A stretch of 64,000 bases of DNA from Promethearchaeota archaeon. Lineage in GTDB: Archaea > Asgardarchaeota > Heimdallarchaeia > Hodarchaeales > Hodarchaeaceae. The notes beneath the pieces were generated by a model. It was not told where the DNA came from. It did no database searches and saw only the letters and a program-made list of their open reading frames with translations. The stretch covers positions 32,001-96,000 of the forward strand of contig JBHLMN010000008.1 of the NCBI GenBank assembly GCA_048938105.1, given 5' to 3'. The translations under genes and the position numbers were made by a program. Positions 31,042-53,584 of this stretch are shown here, piece after piece (positions within the stretch are counted from its first letter, which is position 1; the number at the start of each line of letters is the position of its first letter).

Positions 31042-33378
31042 ATGGATAAGCGGTTAGTTGTTATATCAGCAGGAGTTGACCTATCACCATTGATGTTAGA
31101 ATTCCTCCAGGCTGGTCTTAGATTCGCAATAATTCTTAATACTACCGCTGATTTTTCGTTATCAAATAATGAGGCAAAAGATAGTGGAGAGGAAGTATGG
31201 TATCACCACGAAATTGTAAAACTGGCAAATGCAGTGGTACCTGATGATTTAACAAAAAGTTCATTGGCCAAGGTTTTTTCACAACCAGCTCAGACCCGAA
31301 TAACACTAAGCGATGCTGAGATGTTCTTAGTCCAATGGGTTAGCGAAAGAAAAAAGGCAAAACAAAGTTTTCATGACTTTTTTAAAGCATTAAACGAATA
31401 TGCTGGTATGCATCTTGAAGTTTATCCCTTAAAATTTCCTGAAGAAGTTGTTACAATCAAAACACCTACTTCACAAGTTCCGTTGCGATATTTCCAAATT
31501 ACTGGCTATGTAGATCGGAAAGCAGAGCAAAAAACCGATCTTGAGGAACTCCAAAAACTCTTAGTTGAAAGTCAGGAAATTAAAGAGAAAAAGAAAGGTA
31601 TAAAACCTATTGAAATCTTTGGATTAAATCTAAATCGAGACATCTTAACTGAAGAAGCGAGAAAAATCATCACTGAAGCTGATGCAATCCTTTGGCTAGC
31701 AGGAGATCCTTGTTCATTAGCTCTCCTCCTTTTACACAAAGAGTTCACCAAAACTGTGAAAGAATCAAAAGCTCCAGCTACATTGATTTGTCCTAGTCAA
31801 TTCAGTTTTCGGGAGCAATTCATACTACAATTATTGGGAGTCAAACCCACATTACTTGGAATTGCAGAACTAAGTACAGGGATTGTAGACAACCTCGTAG
31901 TTGGCCCTGAAGAGGCTAGTGAGGTTACATCTCTCCGTTCTAAAGGCTTTAATGTTATTATGGAAGATATCAGTAAAACAGAGGGTAAGAAAGGCTTATC
32001 ACCAATTCTAAAGGGCATGGGAATATCATTCAAGGATATTTCAGTCGAATCTGAAGAAGCTGATGAGAAACGATCACTTGAAGATCTTGTTACTCAACTT
32101 TCCTACAAAGTTGAAGAAATTCCTGAAGTTAAAGAACCAGATACTACAGAAATAGATACTAGTACTGAAGATATAGAGATGTCTGAAACTGCAACTGAGG
32201 CTACCCAAAGCGAAACTCTTCCCCCGCCAATAACACTACTAGATACAGAAAGAAAAAATTACGATTTTGATGATTCATCCTTAACCCTAACACAAGAAAT
32301 GATTGAAGGGCTCATGCAAGAATTAACTGAAGAATTCCCATCATCAGAGCAACAATCCCCAGTTGTTATCGATGAGGATGTTTTAAGTTCTGCTTCAAGG
32401 GAGAATGACAGAGGAGAACCAAGTATTCAATTTGAAAGTCAAGAATCTTTCACTGAAGCGATTCAAAAGCTTTTAAAGTTAGAGAAGATCGACCAAGAGA
32501 GTGAATTAGTTCAGGGGATAAGAGATGCTATCTCAAAGAATGCAGATATGGCAATTTATGCTGCAAAGAAGCTCACTAAAGAGTTGGAAACGCACCCCAC
32601 TCAAATTATCCCAATATATCTTGAATTCCTTAAACCTAGAGCTTTAACATTTATTAAAGAATTATTAGATTGGCTATTAACAGATCTAGAATCTCCAGAT
32701 TATGTAGCTTTTGCTCAACGAGTTTCCGTTATCATTTCGATGAGTAAACAAGATGTTCAATTCATAGAACAATTGATTACACAAATCGTTGATTATCATA
32801 TTTCGAAGTCTCTTCCCCCTACTGAACGAGAGCGCATACGCACAATAATTGGAATGATTACTGCCCGAAATGTGACGCTACAAAGACGAGCTATTAGGAC
32901 ATACTTAAGCTATTATGAATCATCTGAAGTAAAACCAGATGAACTCTGGCTTGGTCTTATTAAATTTGATGCGACTCTAGTAGCGCTTGAAATCATTGAA
33001 CATCAGAGTGAAATAGGAGTTAAACTCGTACAGGATGCATTATCGCGAAATTTCGGTTCGTTTGGACATATTGTTTATGATGTATTCCACGCTTACCAAA
33101 AAGGAGATATTCAGCGTGTATTAACGTTTGCAGGAACGCTCTCAGATGGTCTGCTTAGAAAACAAAAACGAATGGAACTCGCGGCAAAGATAACTAAATT
33201 TGGAAGCGTACCAATCGAAACATTGGCACGAAGTGTTGAAATTGATCCCAAGGAATTAGAAAATCTTGTTTATGAGATGATAAACGAAAATGAGATCAAT
33301 GCTAAAATCGATGTCGTTGAAGGACGTCTCTGTATAGTGCAGTTGAATGACAAAGAGAAAGAAGAAGGTGAAAAGTAA
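31042..33378 (+). CDS. Degenerate CofD/UPF0052-fold domain, acidic linker, helical region and C-terminal PCI domain
   Basis: LVVISAGV...ILNTTADF...EARKIITEADAILWLAGDP (CofD-like); GSVPIETLARSVEIDPKELENLVYEMINENEINAKID (PCI). Confidence 0.7.
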   Translation: MDKRLVVISAGVDLSPLMLEFLQAGLRFAIILNTTADFSLSNNEAKDSGEEVWYHHEIVKLANAVVPDDLTKSSLAKVFSQPAQTRITLSDAEMFLVQWVSERKKAKQSFHDFFKALNEYAGMHLEVYPLKFPEEVVTIKTPTSQVPLRYFQITGYVDRKAEQKTDLEELQKLLVESQEIKEKKKGIKPIEIFGLNLNRDILTEEARKIITEADAILWLAGDPCSLALLLLHKEFTKTVKESKAPATLICPSQFSFREQFILQLLGVKPTLLGIAELSTGIVDNLVVGPEEASEVTSLRSKGFNVIMEDISKTEGKKGLSPILKGMGISFKDISVESEEADEKRSLEDLVTQLSYKVEEIPEVKEPDTTEIDTSTEDIEMSETATEATQSETLPPPITLLDTERKNYDFDDSSLTLTQEMIEGLMQELTEEFPSSEQQSPVVIDEDVLSSASRENDRGEPSIQFESQESFTEAIQKLLKLEKIDQESELVQGIRDAISKNADMAIYAAKKLTKELETHPTQIIPIYLEFLKPRALTFIKELLDWLLTDLESPDYVAFAQRVSVIISMSKQDVQFIEQLITQIVDYHISKSLPPTERERIRTIIGMITARNVTLQRRAIRTYLSYYESSEVKPDELWLGLIKFDATLVALEIIEHQSEIGVKLVQDALSRNFGSFGHIVYDVFHAYQKGDIQRVLTFAGTLSDGLLRKQKRMELAAKITKFGSVPIETLARSVEIDPKELENLVYEMINENEINAKIDVVEGRLCIVQLNDKEKEEGEK

Positions 33379-41752: not shown

Positions 41753-43405
41753 CTAGTCTACTTGGATAGTAACTAATGGCCCAAAAACTTCTTCAGCATC
41801 ATTTATTGCATCATCGAATTGGCTTAGGTCTCCGCTCCAAGTAGGAATGATAGCTTTGAATTTCTCCTCGAATTTCTGTAAGAACTTTTGTAAGAGACTA
41901 TGTAGTTCAGGGTCATTTTTATTAGCAAAAATTGCAGCAGAAAGTCCCATCTTGCCTTTATCAGAAATAATGAAGTGAGTTCCATGACGAACTAGGCTTA
42001 AGTTTGCCCCTTCTTCTCCAGTTGCTTCTAGCATGAATGACCCTACAGCTGAAAGGGCACCAGAAATCAAAGGAAGATCTACTTGAAGTTCTTTCTCTCT
42101 CCCAAAATCATAATGAAAGATAGGCATTCCAGCGTCATTAATGACCAATAAGAGAAAAAATTCTAAGGGGGGAAAAGAATCTCCAATCCAAAATAATGGT
42201 AAACCAGCAAGTATGGCTAAACCAAGTAATATAAATACATTCATAATCAAGGTAATATCTAAGATTTGTTCAGAAACAAATAAATAACTTAAGGGGAAGC
42301 CAATATAAATACCTAGACCAAGAGATTGGAAATTAAGAGATGAATATTTACCAATGGAATCTCTCGGAGCTAGGTCTACCCATAAACTTCCATCAAGAGC
42401 TGGGTGAATCAAAGCGAAAGATATACCGATGATAAGAGCAGAGAGATAAAAAGCTGCTGAATAGTCGTTAAATAATCCAACAATTAATGAAGCGAAAACA
42501 ATTCCATATAAAGCTAGAATAATTGAAGTTTTTCTCCCCCAATAATCAGTAAGGAATCCCGAGGGGAAAATAAAGAAGCAACTACCAATAAGTACAATTA
42601 ACCAGAAAGATTTGTACCAACTAATGTCTAGAAATGTACTAAAACCAAGGATAATGCCAGCCTGGGCTAATGAACCGAAGGTCAAACCAATCATCAAATA
42701 TACAAGGGTATGTGTCCAATAATAAGCCTCTACTGAAGGACGCTTGAGAATTCGTATAAGTGGAGTAACCCATGGGTCATTTATCCAGAAGGGCCAATTT
42801 CGGGTATAGTAATAGAAAACAATACTAATCACAATTCCAATAACTGAAATTACGGAAAATGAGAAGAAAAAATCCAAATTAAATAATTCAGTTCCTAAAA
42901 GCAATAAAATACAAGAAAATAGCCCTCCAAATATCGCAATCGCATATCCTCTCCCACGATGCGTCCACTTTATCGAAGATCCATAGAGAGTATGTGCTGT
43001 AATAGTCAAAACTCCCATAAAGGCCCCTAGACAAAATACTGCTATAATTAAGAGTAATCCATTTATAAATTGTAAAGCAATCATATCAATGGCAAGAAAT
43101 AGCGAACTTCCAATCAGTCCCACTACTGTTACTTTTCCTAAATCTTTAGGATATTTATCTATGACCATACCACTAAAAGATCCAGTAACTCCTGCTGGAA
43201 CTGCCCAGACAATCATAATAAAAAAATCATGAGTACCAGGTAAAATGTTATTATCCTTTATATAGTCCATCATATCAAAGGAATAAATTAAGACAAAAGC
43301 AATGAGTAATACCCATGTAAATAGGGATGGTAGCAAAGCGTTTGTGTAATGAATAAGTCTGCTATATTTATTATTTTTTTCATTATTTACTTTCAATCTC
43401 CTCAC
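41753..43405 (-). CDS. MFS transporter fused to a C-terminal longin-like domain
   Basis: About 12 TMs with SGFLTDYWGRK (MFS motif A); tail LLVINDAGMPIF...LISGALSAVGSF...FEEKF...WSGDLSQF. Confidence 0.8.
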   Translation of the reverse strand: MRRLKVNNEKNNKYSRLIHYTNALLPSLFTWVLLIAFVLIYSFDMMDYIKDNNILPGTHDFFIMIVWAVPAGVTGSFSGMVIDKYPKDLGKVTVVGLIGSSLFLAIDMIALQFINGLLLIIAVFCLGAFMGVLTITAHTLYGSSIKWTHRGRGYAIAIFGGLFSCILLLLGTELFNLDFFFSFSVISVIGIVISIVFYYYTRNWPFWINDPWVTPLIRILKRPSVEAYYWTHTLVYLMIGLTFGSLAQAGIILGFSTFLDISWYKSFWLIVLIGSCFFIFPSGFLTDYWGRKTSIILALYGIVFASLIVGLFNDYSAAFYLSALIIGISFALIHPALDGSLWVDLAPRDSIGKYSSLNFQSLGLGIYIGFPLSYLFVSEQILDITLIMNVFILLGLAILAGLPLFWIGDSFPPLEFFLLLVINDAGMPIFHYDFGREKELQVDLPLISGALSAVGSFMLEATGEEGANLSLVRHGTHFIISDKGKMGLSAAIFANKNDPELHSLLQKFLQKFEEKFKAIIPTWSGDLSQFDDAINDAEEVFGPLVTIQVD

Positions 43406-43447
43406 TACCCATTTTGCTGTGTCTTCTTTAGATTTTAAGTATTGGGA

Positions 43448-45262
43448 TTATTGTAAGGAAAAAATAGGTTGATCAACAGTGAGAAGTTTGGCTGCTTCTA
43501 TATTAAAGTTGGATCCATAGATTCTCTCTACTGCCTCATTGAACGGAGTATGACGTCTAGCTGCTAATAATTGATTTGTTCTCATGTGCAGGGATCTGCG
43601 TGGAAGTGGTTCCACATCTTTAGCTCTTGATTGCCAATCTGCTATTTGTTGTGAAATCCCTGCAATTTCGACAGAAGTCGTTGCTATAGTACCAACAACT
43701 CGTTCTTGATTTCCATTCAAGCTAAGAATGAGTTTTTGATTGTCTTCAGCTATCAAGAAGAGTTCTTCAATTAATATTCGATTGTCATCAAAGCAGGTTT
43801 TATATAATTTTGATATTTCCTGATCTAAACCATTAAAAAACGTAATCACTGTATTTGGTAGAGTATCCAGTCGTGTTAGGAAAAATGTGTCCGTTTTCTT
43901 AAAGTCTGTTTCAAAAGTTCCAACGACGTAATAGCTTTCCTCACGAACCGTATCAAAGAGATCGAAAAGATTCATATCTCCAACCGCGTCAACAGTTATT
44001 CCTTGGGTGATAAAAGAACTTTCAGACATAAATTGTGGTAAATGACTTTGTTTTTTCTCTTTCTTTACTTCTTTAGGGAGTTTGATTTTTCTTGGTTTAG
44101 GAATTGATCTTTCTTTGACTGGTGGTTTTGCTTTCTTACCAAATAATACTCGCTTAATTTTGCCAAAGAAGCCTTCTTTAACTGGTGGTTCTACTGTTTC
44201 TACCTCTGGAACAGCAGCAATCTCTTCAGATATAATGATTGGTTTCTCTTTGGGTTTAACAGCATGTTCTTCTATGGAAGTAAATAATGATTTCCAACCA
44301 CCATGTTCAAGACCCCGTAATTGAAGAATTGTTAAGACTTCTGAGAGATTGAGTTCATCTGCTGGTGTTTTAAGAACAAATATTGGTTTTGCGCGCGTAA
44401 AAGGATCTCGTACGATGAAAAAATGTTCCATAGTATCTAATATACTCCCTCTCATTAGTACTAATTGTTTACCATCAAGAGGTTGATTTAAGAATTTTAC
44501 AATTGAAGGTAATTCGACTTGTAGTTTGAGTGCATTTGATGGGGTTGTATTCCATAAAGAAACTAGAGAGGTTTGTTGAGCGTCAAGAAGTAAAATAGCT
44601 TTACTTTCGTTCATGTTTGGAATAATCGGATTAGGATTTGTTTCTACAACTTGTTTTTCACTATAACTTATCATCAAGCGCCAAATTGGTTCAGTTAATG
44701 CTTTATACTCTGTATATTGAGGTAAATTACCGAATTTCTGAATTTCGTCATCTGGGTACATTCTCTTCATGGCAGCTGATAAAATACCTAGTTCCCACCC
44801 ACAAGGGCCTTTCCCTAGAAGTTCTGACACTACAGCTAAATAAGGGGTGATATAGCTATCTTTTAACCTGATTAATGTAGCTTTCCGTGATAATCCCCGA
44901 CCAGCCATAAACAAGTCCTGTCGTCTTATGGTGGTAGCTGTTTTATATGCTAGATAGAAAATTCTCATCAAGGAGTCAGATGAAGAACAACGAGAACGAC
45001 CTTGAAGAAATGAGTGTATAACTGACCGATATCGTTCCTCATCTGATCCACCAGAAGGAAGTTCGGAAGCGGTGACGATGAAATCAGCAACAAAAAGAGC
45101 ACGAACCGCATCATCAATTTCAGTTAATCCTTGATTGGAAGCGAGCTCAACCAACTCTGATTGATTTTTATAACGATTCAACCGATTTTCAAGATCATAT
45201 TCATCTTCTATCTTGTGAACCAAGGATCTACAAACGTCTTCATTTGGTATCTTTAACATCAT
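43448..45262 (-). CDS. Hypothetical soluble protein with possible roadblock/longin-like domains and an amphipathic helix
   Basis: Intact 604-aa ORF. The fold guess comes only from the secondary-structure pattern. Confidence 0.6.
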   Translation of the reverse strand: MMLKIPNEDVCRSLVHKIEDEYDLENRLNRYKNQSELVELASNQGLTEIDDAVRALFVADFIVTASELPSGGSDEERYRSVIHSFLQGRSRCSSSDSLMRIFYLAYKTATTIRRQDLFMAGRGLSRKATLIRLKDSYITPYLAVVSELLGKGPCGWELGILSAAMKRMYPDDEIQKFGNLPQYTEYKALTEPIWRLMISYSEKQVVETNPNPIIPNMNESKAILLLDAQQTSLVSLWNTTPSNALKLQVELPSIVKFLNQPLDGKQLVLMRGSILDTMEHFFIVRDPFTRAKPIFVLKTPADELNLSEVLTILQLRGLEHGGWKSLFTSIEEHAVKPKEKPIIISEEIAAVPEVETVEPPVKEGFFGKIKRVLFGKKAKPPVKERSIPKPRKIKLPKEVKKEKKQSHLPQFMSESSFITQGITVDAVGDMNLFDLFDTVREESYYVVGTFETDFKKTDTFFLTRLDTLPNTVITFFNGLDQEISKLYKTCFDDNRILIEELFLIAEDNQKLILSLNGNQERVVGTIATTSVEIAGISQQIADWQSRAKDVEPLPRRSLHMRTNQLLAARRHTPFNEAVERIYGSNFNIEAAKLLTVDQPIFSLQ

Positions 45263-45410: not shown

Positions 45411-46745
45411 TTATTCGAGGCCAATATCTGGAACTGGAGATAGAGATTTCTCCATAGCAATCTCAGTTGGTACAGCGGTCTTTTCAACATTTCGAAACCC
45501 AGTCATAAACCATGAAAATCCTAGGAAGAACAATCCCATTGATATTGCTAGAAGAAAAACTGGTACTATCCCTAACAGTTCAGCTATAATCCCTGAAAGA
45601 ATCGTTGAAATTGGTCCCGATGATTGAGCAATTGATCTCCTAACAGACATTACTCTCCCCATTTTTTCTGGTGGAACGATTTTTTGCCAAATTGTTTGGG
45701 ATGCAATGTTAGCCACTGGAAGAAAGAACCCCATAATGACCATACCACAGGCTAATATTAGAAAATTTCCTGTCGGGGTAATAGTACAAATGAGAAATCC
45801 AATATACATTGCAAACAATCCAATAACTACTCCATTGGCATTATTTTCGAATCCTCTCCAAGTTGACATGAATATAGAAGCTGCAATAATTCCAAATTGC
45901 TGAACTGCCATGATGAACGCTAAATCAGTTGCTCCTCCTAAATGATTGTATTTTACATACATGGGTAATAGAACAAAAATCGGATTAATGAAGAAATTGG
46001 CTGCAGTAAAAACGGTCAACAGGGCTAGTAATCCTTCTTTGCTCTTAATAAAGATAAAACCTTCAGAAAATTCTTCCCGAAACCTGGGTTTTTCTTCACT
46101 AGGAATCGTTTTGGCTTTTATTGAAGGAATCGCAATAATTATTGTTGGTATTATAGCAAAGAAAAAGGTAATTGCATCAATCCACATAACTTCCCAGATG
46201 AACCAAATTTCAAGTAATACAGCTCCAATTATCGGTCCTGTTAAAAAGATGATCCCCGTAAAGAAATAATTTAGCCCATTCATACGACTGAGTTTTTCTT
46301 TGGGGACTAATAAAGGAATAATTGCATCAACTGCAGGATTATGGAAGGCCTGAAAAATTGCTCTAAGCGTTATAATTGCTAGAACCCAAATCATTAAAAC
46401 CCAAGATTCTAATCCAATCATAAATAGATAAATTAGAAAAACCGTTACCAGAGCTTGAAAGAAGTCGACAGTGGCAATAATCTTCTTTCTTGACCATCTA
46501 TCTACAAAAACTCCTGCAATAGGAATTAGAAAAACTGTAGGCGCGAAACCGAGGAAAAAGGAAATTGCTAACATGAATTCGCTCTCGGTTGTGATCGTAA
46601 TCCACCATACGATTGCAAATTGTACTATACTTGAACCTAATAAGGATACTAATTGACCAATCCATAAAATAATATATCCTCTTAAGTTATAGTGAGACTC
46701 CATATCATTTTCATTCGTTGTTGAATTATTACTGTTTTCAGACAC
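45411..46745 (-). CDS. MFS efflux transporter (DHA3/MefA-like)
   Basis: LWIGQLVSLLGS, AGVFVDRWSRKK, VPPEKMGRV. Confidence 0.9.
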   Translation of the reverse strand: MSENSNNSTTNENDMESHYNLRGYIILWIGQLVSLLGSSIVQFAIVWWITITTESEFMLAISFFLGFAPTVFLIPIAGVFVDRWSRKKIIATVDFFQALVTVFLIYLFMIGLESWVLMIWVLAIITLRAIFQAFHNPAVDAIIPLLVPKEKLSRMNGLNYFFTGIIFLTGPIIGAVLLEIWFIWEVMWIDAITFFFAIIPTIIIAIPSIKAKTIPSEEKPRFREEFSEGFIFIKSKEGLLALLTVFTAANFFINPIFVLLPMYVKYNHLGGATDLAFIMAVQQFGIIAASIFMSTWRGFENNANGVVIGLFAMYIGFLICTITPTGNFLILACGMVIMGFFLPVANIASQTIWQKIVPPEKMGRVMSVRRSIAQSSGPISTILSGIIAELLGIVPVFLLAISMGLFFLGFSWFMTGFRNVEKTAVPTEIAMEKSLSPVPDIGLE

Positions 46746-49298: not shown

Positions 49299-51521
49299 TC
49301 AGCGGATTACTCTTTTTTTACGATGTATCAGTATTACTAAAGTAATGGCTACCAATACAGGTAATATAGGAAACTGAGAATTATTTTGTGAGGTGTCTGT
49401 TGTTGTGATGGTGGATTCTTGAATAAGATTTATCAAGACATCAAAAGCGATAGCTCTCGCATTATATTCATCTTCCCTGGCTGTAGTAACGATAATTAAA
49501 TCATATGTTGGATAAATTTGAATCATTTGACCACCATAACCAAGAGCTGTATATGCATCCCCAATGAGCCAGAATTGATATCCATAGCCAGAAGGGTTAT
49601 TAATACCAGTTCTAGGCAATCCTTCAATATGATCTTGAGATGATATCATAATCCAGTCTTTAGAGATTATTTGATTACTGTTCCATGTCCCATTATTCAA
49701 ATATAATTGACCGAATTTTGCCATATTTCGAGGCGTTAAAAAGAGTCCAATTCCCCCAAAATTGATTCCATCGGATCCAGCCATCCATATCACGTCGGAC
49801 TCTTCAATGCCTAAAGGCTTAAAAAGATATTTTAAAGCGAATTCTAAGGTAGATAAACCAGTAGTCTTCTGGATTATCGCTGATAATAATTGGGAAGCCC
49901 CTGTATTATAATTATATTCTGCACCTGGATTAGCAGCCATTGGTTTTGAGAGAACATACTCCACACTATCATTAGCTACAACCATTCCCCATATATCAAT
50001 CAAATCATTCCACTCCATCCCTGTGGTCATTGAGAGTAAATGATGAAGTGTTATTGCTTCTTTTCTCGAATCATTGTTTGATATTGATATATCAGGAAAG
50101 AAATCAAGAACTCGTTGATCAACACTATTAATGTATCCTTTATCAATAGCAATACCAATTAATGCTGACGTAAAACTTTTAGTGGCCGAAAAATGAGTAT
50201 GTTTTAAGGTAGGAGTATATACTTGACTATAATCACTATAATATTGCTCAAATACTAAACTACCATGCCTGATTATTACTACACTATGTATTCGTGAGTT
50301 TTCTACAGTATTGGCTAAAGATTTTCTTAATGACGTCGAATTGATTCCTTGTTCTTCTGGAGTTGATGTGGGCCATTCATCTAACGATTGTTCTATACTA
50401 AGAGTTGGATAATCTCCCCATAGCTTAACTGTCCAATCCCAACTAGCTGAGGCAAGCATTGTTCCATCCAATGAGAATTTCACTGACTCAATGGAATTTT
50501 TATGGCCTACCACTGTATCAATTAACTTTCCATCAGTTGTGTTCCAAATTTGGATTGAACAGTCATGTAGTTGGCCATAAAAACGCCAATAATCTTCAGG
50601 CCATTCTAGAGATGGATCAACCGCGACGGCAAGAGAAGAATCAACTAGAGAAAGAGCTAATGACCAAGTTGATTCATTTGTTTTTAGTACGCGAGAAATA
50701 TTTTTTTTCTTTACATCCCAGAAATTGATTGATTTATCAAGGCCAGCAGAAATTATTGTTGACTCATCGTGTGAGAATGTCACAGAAGTAATCTTATCTC
50801 CATGACCCTTAAAAGTTTGAAGTTCGATTCCAGAAGATACATCCCATAATCGAATAGTTTTATCCCAAGAGCCAGTAAGTAACAAAGAGTCATCCTTTGA
50901 GAAGGAAATGGAGGAAACAGCATCGGTATGACCAATGAACCTCTGTAAGACTTCTCCACTAGTCACGTTTAAAAGCTGAATGAACTTCTTTTCGTTATTA
51001 CCATAAGTAACATCTCCCATCCATTCACCTCCTCCTACAGCTAAAGTTTTTCCGTCAGAGGACCATTTTAAATCAATAACTGCATGTGGAAATAAAGCCC
51101 ACTTCGCCAAAAGTTCCCCTGAAGAAATATTCCAGAGATTAATTTTAGTGTCTATTCCCCCAGAAGCTAAGATTTCACCAGAAGGATTAAAATCTAATGA
51201 AATGACCCCATAATGATGTCTACTTAGTACATGTATAATATTCCCGTTACTTAAGTTCCACAAGCGAATAGTTCCGTCTGAAGAACCTGATGCAAGTATG
51301 GAACCATCTGGTGAAAATGCTATTTCTCGAACTCTCCAACCATGACCTGTGAGGGTGGCAAAGTTGTTGGAAAATAATGAAGATTTGGAACTTCTAGAGT
51401 AATGTACGAGATTTTCGTCTTCATTGATTGCACCTACGCCGAAGTTCATGCAAATTGTGTTTGTAATGAAGATTATTAGGGAAATTAAACAAAAAAAAGT
51501 TTTACTGGTTATTTTTGGCAA
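49299..51521 (-). CDS. Secreted, C-terminally anchored WD40 propeller fused to a beta-lactamase-like serine hydrolase
   Basis: Signal peptide; GH...W(D/N) WD40 repeats; SATK (SxxK), HLLSMTTG, YNYNTG; Thr linker, TM and basic tail. Confidence 0.88.
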   Translation of the reverse strand: MPKITSKTFFCLISLIIFITNTICMNFGVGAINEDENLVHYSRSSKSSLFSNNFATLTGHGWRVREIAFSPDGSILASGSSDGTIRLWNLSNGNIIHVLSRHHYGVISLDFNPSGEILASGGIDTKINLWNISSGELLAKWALFPHAVIDLKWSSDGKTLAVGGGEWMGDVTYGNNEKKFIQLLNVTSGEVLQRFIGHTDAVSSISFSKDDSLLLTGSWDKTIRLWDVSSGIELQTFKGHGDKITSVTFSHDESTIISAGLDKSINFWDVKKKNISRVLKTNESTWSLALSLVDSSLAVAVDPSLEWPEDYWRFYGQLHDCSIQIWNTTDGKLIDTVVGHKNSIESVKFSLDGTMLASASWDWTVKLWGDYPTLSIEQSLDEWPTSTPEEQGINSTSLRKSLANTVENSRIHSVVIIRHGSLVFEQYYSDYSQVYTPTLKHTHFSATKSFTSALIGIAIDKGYINSVDQRVLDFFPDISISNNDSRKEAITLHHLLSMTTGMEWNDLIDIWGMVVANDSVEYVLSKPMAANPGAEYNYNTGASQLLSAIIQKTTGLSTLEFALKYLFKPLGIEESDVIWMAGSDGINFGGIGLFLTPRNMAKFGQLYLNNGTWNSNQIISKDWIMISSQDHIEGLPRTGINNPSGYGYQFWLIGDAYTALGYGGQMIQIYPTYDLIIVTTAREDEYNARAIAFDVLINLIQESTITTTDTSQNNSQFPILPVLVAITLVILIHRKKRVIR

Positions 51522-52492: not shown

Positions 52493-52966
52493 ATGTCACG
52501 AAGAGTTTATGTTAAAGGAAAACGCACGTATGCCCACGGTCAAGCCCCAGATCTTTCTAAATCCAACCGTTACCAAAATATCGTCAGCTTAATGTCTATA
52601 CGGGTAGAAGATGTCCATGAGACAAGTCCCGTGGATAGAACGGGTGAATTTTATTTCGAAGTAGGAGGTAAAGGAGCCTTAAAGCACGATTATCGCATTC
52701 CACATCAAGGGAATATTAATATTAAAGAAAATATGACCTATTCCGCTAAACAAGATTTTACATTGTGGCTCGAATTTGACGAGTCTGAAAAAGCAAAAAC
52801 TAAGCAGATTCCTATTAAACTTCGAGAACGGGATGCTACCCGAGATGATACTGTAATAAAGTCCGAAATTCCAATTGTTTACGGAAGTGGAACCAAATAC
52901 GAGGTTTTGAAAGGGAAGGGTATTGCTGTTAAGATTAAAATCTCGTCCCGTAAGACTCGTTTTTAA
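52493..52966 (+). CDS. Hypothetical beta-rich protein, C2-domain-like
   Basis: VDRTGEFYFEV and IKLRERDATRDD resemble C2 loop motifs. Confidence 0.55.
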   Translation: MSRRVYVKGKRTYAHGQAPDLSKSNRYQNIVSLMSIRVEDVHETSPVDRTGEFYFEVGGKGALKHDYRIPHQGNINIKENMTYSAKQDFTLWLEFDESEKAKTKQIPIKLRERDATRDDTVIKSEIPIVYGSGTKYEVLKGKGIAVKIKISSRKTRF

Positions 52967-52990
52967 GAATGCTTTAATTTCAGTTGATTA

Positions 52991-53584
52991 ATGATAATAG
53001 GTGCAATGAGAATGGTAAAAGACGAGGAACCAAAAAAGTCACGTAAATTGTTCGATAAGATCAAAGATTCAGGGAAGGATTTCGTAGAGGGTATGAAAGA
53101 AGAAATTCAGACTGCTCAAACCACGACTAAAGAGAAAACCAAGACTTATACAACGAAAAAGTCTGAGGAAATAAGAACTTCTGTAAAGCGTCGGGCTGCA
53201 GAAACCAGTACTGCAGAGGAACTTTATTTTTCTACATGGGCTTGGTTCTGGGCAATGATCTTTAGTGGTTTCGTGTGTCTTTCTATTTTTTTATTTAGTG
53301 TGGTCAACGCAAGATTCTTTTTGGTTGGATTACTTGCATTGATTGCCCTCCCATTCGTTGTTGCATGGTGTCTTATCCATATGATTCCGACTGTTAAAAT
53401 TTTTGGTTTCACTATTTTTGATAGACGGAAGCTATCATTACGCAGACAGTTGAGCTTGGGAAAAGAAATTGCGCGATTATTTTCTCGTGAATTCCTACAG
53501 GAATCTCCCATCATTGCATTCTTCATCTTTGCATTTTTCGTTATATTTATCTTTGCCCTCCTATTTGCGTTTATCCCTACTTGA
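52991..53584 (+). CDS. Hypothetical membrane protein (charged helical N-terminus, hydrophobic hairpin, C-terminal TM)
   Basis: Hydropathy pattern; 24 bp downstream of the previous gene. Confidence 0.7.
   Translation: MIIGAMRMVKDEEPKKSRKLFDKIKDSGKDFVEGMKEEIQTAQTTTKEKTKTYTTKKSEEIRTSVKRRAAETSTAEELYFSTWAWFWAMIFSGFVCLSIFLFSVVNARFFLVGLLALIALPFVVAWCLIHMIPTVKIFGFTIFDRRKLSLRRQLSLGKEIARLFSREFLQESPIIAFFIFAFFVIFIFALLFAFIPT

Follow-up and report, generated by a model that had tools for sequence, protein, structure and literature searches.

A predicted carrier-longin fusion and its neighbor, a class-wide protein with two putative longin-like units, in a Heimdallarchaeia archaeon

Introduction

Could an archaeal solute carrier be wired directly to a longin signaling platform? 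The question is raised by two adjacent genes in a 64,000-nucleotide stretch of DNA, here called the window, which spans positions 32001 to 96000 of contig C49 (GenBank JBHLMN010000008.1) in the 5.85-Mb, 65-contig genome G000 of a Promethearchaeota archaeon of the class Heimdallarchaeia (assembly GCA_048938105.1). One gene encodes a major facilitator superfamily (MFS) carrier that ends in a predicted longin domain, called the tail below, and the other encodes a 604-residue (604-aa) protein with two putative longin-like units. The longin fold serves eukaryotes in the docking of small GTPases. Longin and roadblock domains are scaffolds of eukaryotic guanine nucleotide exchange factor (GEF) and GTPase-activating protein (GAP) complexes, i.e., TRAPP, Mon1-Ccz1, Ragulator, GATOR, and folliculin. 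A first-pass annotation had taken the two genes for a candidate module of this kind, a prokaryotic analogue of transporter-based nutrient signaling. We lean toward a different reading, in which they encode two separate membrane-associated longin proteins that are neighbors by chance of lineage, their adjacency being lineage-limited synteny.

The carrier and its longin tail

The 550-residue protein matches Pfam MFS_1 over residues 62 to 369 (45.6 bits, against a cutoff of 33.4; E = 6e-12), and its hydropathy is consistent with the 12 transmembrane (TM) segments described in the first-pass annotation. Membership in the MFS, judged by a profile match above the curated threshold and by 12 TM segments in two six-helix halves with the cytoplasmic-loop motif A, GxxxD(R/K)xGR(R/K), applies to this protein on both counts. 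The loop that follows TM8 contains a motif-A-like GxLxDxxGRK (residues 283 to 292; here GFLTDYWGRK), whose D, G, and R are invariant in 80 homologues, with K present in 78 of the 80; the copy in the first half is degenerate. Fused homologues form 80 clusters, every one with MFS_1. Given the MFS_1 match, the 12-TM hydropathy, and the preserved motif A, the protein looks like a working MFS secondary carrier and not simply an anchor. The carrier matched none of the NCBIfam subfamilies, so these suggested no substrate, and the genes beside the orthologous carrier in other genomes, which differ between the two clades examined, gave no substrate clue either; they encode a Cys/Met pyridoxal phosphate enzyme, a GDSL lipase, an HD domain, a RuBisCO-like protein, and an M24 peptidase.

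The tail contains the sequence motifs noted earlier (LLLVINDAGMPIF, LISGALSAVGSF, and FEEKFKAIIPTWSGDLSQF), all of which are found in the translation. An alignment of 69 tails shows that the linker between TM12 and the domain, DSFPPLEF, is short and nearly invariant, which suggests a tight mechanical coupling of the tail to the carrier. The AlphaFold model calculated from this alignment has a mean predicted local distance difference test score (pLDDT) of 88.1 and a predicted template modeling score (pTM) of 0.83, and its elements run in the order beta-beta-alpha-beta-beta-beta-alpha-alpha (E12-18, E24-28, H40-58, E67-70, E73-79, E85-90, H95-111, and H129-143). Foldseek matched it to the TRAPP subunits Bet5, Trs23, and Trs20, to AP sigma subunits, to Mon1-Ccz1, and to Ykt6, with E values of 5e-6 to 1e-3; roadblock proteins ranked lower and were matched over fewer residues. 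The model thus has the longin topology and matches solved longins over the whole domain well above background, and it lacks the Roadblock/LC7 arrangement of alpha-beta-beta-alpha-beta-beta-beta, in which a helix comes first and none follows at the C terminus. On the basis of this fold order and the Foldseek ranking, the tail is predicted to be a longin fold and not a roadblock fold, in agreement with the earlier proposal of a longin-like tail.

Sequence comparison gave much less. Pfam found no match in residues 405 to 550, sequence and profile searches of the PDB sequences returned nothing meaningful, and this tail did not reach the gathering score of the Pfam longin families Sybindin (PF04099), Fuz_longin_1 (PF19036), or Intu_longin_1 (PF19031). 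Among the 69 aligned tails there was one Sybindin match (E = 0.006) and there were two Intu_longin_1 matches (E = 0.034).

The 604-aa protein

The model of the 604-aa protein, built from 53 homologues, is confident and compact (pLDDT 84.5, pTM 0.81). Helices occupy residues 8 to 203 and are followed by a first beta-beta-alpha-beta-beta-beta-alpha-alpha unit (221 to 327), a disordered stretch (330 to 405), a helix (410 to 427), and a second unit of the same order (443 to 582). The high pTM suggests that the domains pack into one body. In the alignment the linker varies in length and sequence, and the C-terminal helix of unit 2 carries the conserved pattern RRSLHMRTxQLLxARRHTPF. The modeled units correspond to two segments (residues 220 to 314 and 430 to 528) that had been described as roadblock- or longin-like, and so both alpha/beta units are where they had been placed and the model gives them the longin topology; the roadblock order was not found in them.

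When unit 2 was used in an exhaustive structural search, about 35 of the 50 best-ranked rows were longin or roadblock chains, at modest Z scores of 4.3 to 5.8. Foldseek of the whole model against the PDB gave no match at E ≤ 0.001, in a type of search where a single domain may score weakly or be missed in models longer than about 400 residues. We regard the longin-like assignment, which comes from the model, as moderately well supported in unit 2 and as weakly supported in unit 1. Profile-profile alignment with hhalign detected no similarity of the tail to either unit or of the two units to each other.

The protein has no Pfam or NCBIfam match, and Pfam found no informative domain in ten of its more distant relatives. 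A profile search of 1.84 billion representatives yielded only 83 clusters of the family. In the ESM Atlas there was one matching cluster, a 302-aa Promethearchaeota family aligned over residues 220 to 587, and a feature search of the same resource with the 604-aa protein returned no usable match. The gene is present in a single copy in this genome, with no paralogue, and the family occurs in 62 of the 82 genomes of the class and in five of its seven families, with identity as low as about 24% in one of them; as sampled here, it is limited to the Heimdallarchaeia-type class. The label of orphan that the first-pass annotation gave the protein can therefore be dropped.

The disordered linker contains a feature that was not on the earlier list, an amphipathic motif (EGFFGKIKRVLFGKK) that is modeled as a helix over residues 365 to 374. 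Its consensus, GFFxKIKxxLFGKK, is found in 52 of the 53 homologues, within a linker that is otherwise variable. The motif resembles the membrane-targeting sequences of MinD, KGFLKRLFGG in Escherichia coli (PMC5471200) and KGMMAKIKSFFG in Bacillus subtilis (PMC13537761), in a common pattern of K-G, two hydrophobic residues, K-I-K, and then a hydrophobic residue followed by F-G. The MinD helix differs in its setting, being at the C terminus of a ParA-type ATPase, whereas the motif here is internal, in the disordered stretch that joins the two longin-like units. The hydrophobic moment of the motif is similar to that of MinD (0.30, compared with 0.33 to 0.45). By analogy with MinD, we infer that the 604-aa protein may attach peripherally to the membrane through this helix.

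Conservation of the gene pair

Both open reading frames (ORFs) are real, and they are co-directional and 42 bp apart, just as the first-pass annotation described them (Table 1). In the database record the MFS-longin protein starts at a TTG three codons later and is 547 residues long; the gap would be 51 bp if that TTG is the true start. No T-run terminator was seen in the 42-bp spacer, and so the two genes are likely to be co-transcribed.

Orthologues of this carrier (E values of about 1e-67 to 1e-75) were found only in the genus of the window. We assessed the pairing from contig coordinates and ORF maps, leaving out three genomes in which contig ends break the locus (G051, G054, and G064). 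Among the 13 assessable genomes of the genus, each a species representative, the carrier gene adjoins the 604-aa gene in 6 (G000, G059, G063, G048, G065, and G066) and does not in 7. The genes are apart in G049, G052, G053, G055, G061, and G062; in those of these loci that were read, i.e., all except G061, an Lrp/AsnC gene takes the place beside the 604-aa gene, and in G049, G053, and G062 the carrier gene is located elsewhere, among metabolic genes. The closed sister genome G058 keeps the order c13 (a cluster label), 604-aa gene, HpaB, with the carrier gene missing. In the tree of the 604-aa family, G058 is sister to the clade of G000 and G063, in which the genes are adjacent, and the nonadjacent genomes form a clade of their own. 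Outside the genus, the carrier was adjacent in none of six loci with a 604-aa protein from three other families. Metagenomic contigs give a mixed picture: the pair is adjacent on P0116, with 46% identity of the 604-aa protein; it is 860 bp apart on P0102, with an opposite-strand gene in between; and no MFS-longin gene lies near the 604-aa homologue on P0110. We read the adjacency of carrier and 604-aa genes as lineage-limited synteny; in the genomes assessed, it was found in only part of one genus.

Small GTPases

The genome has about 62 small-GTPase-like ORFs, the nearest of them 139 kb from the gene pair, and in three other genomes the annotated ORFs that flank the orthologous carrier include no GTPase. 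No link of a small GTPase to the carrier was thus found in these genomes, and the notion of a conserved, GTPase-linked module, which also has to contend with the limited pairing and with the G058 locus, is not supported. A complex prediction for the 604-aa protein and the tail, both supplied as alignments, scored 0.02 against a mark of 0.32; it gives no verdict, and we have used it neither way.

In the distant genome G046, which belongs to another family, the gene directly downstream of the 604-aa homologue runs in the same direction and encodes a Ras-family GTPase of 191 residues (contig C4; L015, 5167 to 5739).

The longin family of the tail

A hidden Markov model of the tail has matches in 81 of the 82 genomes of the class, with 3 to 26 per genome. 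About 25 proteins of the present genome carry a tail-type longin domain. They include four MFS-longin paralogues, two of which are in tandem on contig C20, as well as a HerA-type ATPase, a tetratricopeptide repeat (TPR) protein, an Arf-family GTPase, a winged helix-turn-helix protein, several stand-alone domains, and an 861-aa protein with roughly 11 TM segments that likewise ends in the domain. Proteins of about 380 residues with 6 or 7 TM segments end in this longin domain in other families of the class. Some paralogous domains match Fuz_longin_1 or Sybindin at E values of 1.5e-4 to 7e-4, below threshold. Because the domain is fused to many membrane proteins across these genomes, membrane-anchored longin domains appear, from their sequences, to be a general feature of the class.

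Some of these paralogues have neighborhoods of their own. On contig C9 (125915 to 131205), the gene of the 861-aa protein is convergent to that of an 874-aa HerA/DUF87-type ATPase with a tail-like longin domain, a second neighborhood of membrane-longin and soluble-longin genes. On C20 (38644 to 40036), a small GTPase gene overlaps by 22 nt the gene of a 268-aa, Fuz_longin_1-like protein (E = 7e-4), at a distance of 3.8 to 5.5 kb from the tandem MFS-longin paralogues. Another MFS-longin paralogue, on C28, adjoins a gene for a 914-aa DUF362-family protein that is split by an intein with a LAGLIDADG endonuclease (L032, 6157 to 8898).

Genes around the pair

The gene pair sits inside a larger conserved block in the order ABC transporter, PhoU_div, Sir2, HpaB, [carrier], 604-aa gene, c13, MFS_3, C2-like gene, and hairpin gene. 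A second MFS gene, without a tail, is located 148 bp further upstream of the 604-aa gene (45411 to 46745, minus strand); its product is of the DHA3/Mef-like H+ antiporter type (TIGR00900, E = 1.5e-64), and the gene recurs near the 604-aa gene in related genomes. Further along (52493 to 53584) is a pair of genes for a 157-aa protein (cluster c3) and an approximately 190-aa protein (cluster c2) with a weak DUF2207_C match, i.e., a membrane hairpin. This pair is near the 604-aa gene in eight of nine loci of the genus and is often divergent; in the window it has been pushed 7 kb away by inserted genes, among them one for a 740-aa fusion of a WD40 propeller and a class-C beta-lactamase-family domain (49299 to 51521, minus strand; Pfam Beta-lactamase, E = 1.8e-27). 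The distant 604-aa homologues of G027 and G024 (about 24% identity; L016 and L017) have a Peptidase_C69 gene upstream and, downstream, a gene for a 266-aa TPR protein with SNAP and Foie-gras/TRAPPC11-like matches, flanks that are conserved between the two genomes.

Table 1. Features of the gene pair, in window coordinates
Feature	Residues	Position	Strand	Remarks
MFS-longin fusion gene	550 aa	41753..43405	-	GTG start; from ORF list, translation, and Pfam
MFS transporter domain	1-404	42194..43405	-	about 12 TM segments, from hydropathy blocks
Linker DSFPPLEF and predicted cytoplasmic longin domain	405-550	41756..42193	-	
Spacer between the two genes		43406..43447		42 bp; read from the sequence
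604-aa protein gene	604 aa	43448..45262	-	directly upstream of the MFS-longin gene, same direction
N-terminal all-helical domain	1-205	44648..45262	-	many invariant Arg/Asp
Putative longin-like unit 1	221-327	44282..44602	-	bb-a-bbb-a-a
Disordered Lys/Pro/Glu-rich linker	330-405	44048..44275	-	pLDDT <50 over 330-364 and 375-405
Amphipathic motif inside the linker	363-377	44132..44176	-	candidate membrane-targeting helix, MinD type
Putative longin-like unit 2	410-596	43475..44035	-	leading helix, bb-a-bbb-a-a, Arg-rich C-terminal helix

Discussion

If the two proteins are separate, as we are inclined to believe, TM12 of the carrier would pass through the linker into a cytoplasmic longin domain, which may hold a protein-docking or dimerization face against the cytoplasmic side of the carrier. 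The tail might then pair with another longin domain, that of a second carrier or of a soluble member of the family, and so couple the carrier to a partner. The 604-aa protein is most likely a scaffold at the membrane periphery, similar in build to the longin scaffolds found in GTPase GEF and GAP complexes, and its function is most likely independent of the MFS-longin gene; a physical link between the two proteins is possible. Several points weigh against such a separation. Both proteins carry longin domains, which usually work as pairs. The co-directional pair, with its gap of 42 to 51 bp, is seen again on many metagenomic contigs, with identity of the 604-aa protein as low as 46%, and this recurrence could reflect functional coupling in that sub-lineage. 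Membrane binding by the linker helix, which the reading assumes for the 604-aa protein, is deduced from a motif resemblance, and the hydrophobic moment of the helix falls short of the MinD range.

The same facts bear on the proposal that carrier and 604-aa protein form a complex at the membrane which signals solute transport to small GTPases, in a prokaryotic counterpart of SLC38A9-Ragulator-Rag. Such a complex would suit two adjacent, co-directional genes that recur as a pair in six species representatives and several metagenomic contigs, longin-type units in both products, and a likely membrane-binding helix in one of them; the genome has ample GTPases, including an Arf-like one fused to a tail-like longin, and the distant homologue in G046 has a Ras-family GTPase gene directly downstream. 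We nonetheless think it quite unlikely, since the 604-aa family has a much wider distribution than the pairing, G058 has the locus but lacks the carrier gene, the clade of G049 has the carrier among metabolic genes elsewhere, a gene on the opposite strand separates the two in one relative, and the GTPase closest to the pair is 139 kb away. For the sub-lineage that keeps the 42-bp spacing, we give functional coupling of the two genes a similarly poor chance or a slightly lower one. It is very unlikely that, where the genes are co-transcribed, the 604-aa protein docks on the tail to give a carrier-anchored longin platform that recruits or regulates an Arf-, Rag-, or Rab-like GTPase.

The tail might alternatively act on its own carrier, as an intramolecular or homodimeric regulator that gates or oligomerizes it, perhaps on a cytosolic ligand and without any outside partner. 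The very short, nearly invariant DSFPPLEF that ties the domain to TM12 fits this idea, as do the tandem MFS-longin paralogues on contig C20 and the stronger conservation of the tail than of the carrier (mean identity among homologues of 72% versus 52%, in a comparison biased by a search that was seeded on the tail). Longin folds are not known to have a ligand-binding feature, and the longin family of the tail also occurs in fusions with many unrelated proteins, soluble ones and membrane proteins alike, for which reason a general docking module fits better than a carrier-specific gate; we consider self-regulation unlikely. A sorting or localization tag that places the carrier in a membrane region or protrusion would have its model in the SNARE longin domains of VAMP7 and Sec22b, which coat adaptors recognize. 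However, no homologue of a coat or an adaptor was linked to the tail here, TRAPP-type and GEF-type longins match it equally well, and internal membrane sorting in these archaea is unproven, so that this use of the tail has only a slim chance of being correct.

Known longin systems offer partial likenesses. The tail shares 8 to 15% identity with the longins of the TRAPP core (TRAPPC4/Trs23/synbindin and TRAPPC1/Bet5; PDB IDs 2J3T, 3CUE, and 7B6D) and of SNAREs (Sec22b, 1IFQ; VAMP7, 4AFI). Those longins occur as soluble subunits or in front of a single tail anchor, whereas the longin here follows a 12-TM carrier and has neither a TRAPP Bet3-type partner nor a SNARE motif. The resemblance to SLC38A9-Ragulator-Rag of the eukaryotic lysosome is one of concept, a solute carrier associated with longin or roadblock folds at a membrane; in SLC38A9 it is an unstructured N-tail that contacts the Rag GTPases and the roadblock proteins, which are separate polypeptides, whereas here the longin is part of the carrier and no GTPase is linked to it. 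The 604-aa protein recalls the tri-longin GEF subunits (Mon1, Ccz1, Fuzzy, Inturned, and HPS1/4) but falls outside that group: it has two units instead of three, is present as a single copy, matches none of the profiles, shows no sequence similarity, has no known paired subunit, and possesses in addition a helical domain at the N terminus and a long disordered linker that contains an amphipathic helix. Longin/roadblock and GTPase-longin proteins of Asgard archaea are known (Tran et al. 2024, PMC10933270; the Loki Roadblock-Longin structure 8YQG; Liu et al. 2020, preprint, 10.1101/2020.10.19.343400). The passages that term searches retrieved from this literature mention GTPase, two-component, and ESCRT fusions; they mention no fusion with a transporter and no architecture resembling that of the 604-aa protein, and our full-text literature searches found no description of either. 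The predicted fold, the spread, and the membrane-helix motif of the 604-aa family are new.

The expansion of longin and roadblock domains in Asgard archaea is a key clue to the origin of eukaryotic membrane signaling. The value of this locus is tempered in that the proposed coupling of its two genes was not borne out. If it were nevertheless true, a carrier-anchored longin platform would be a pre-eukaryotic form of transporter-coupled GTPase signaling. The longin/roadblock toolkit would gain its first membrane-anchored members in the longin domains fused to polytopic carriers and, likewise, in a class-wide double-longin protein with its own predicted membrane-binding helix. Both proteins are concrete, expressible targets for finding what archaeal longins bind.

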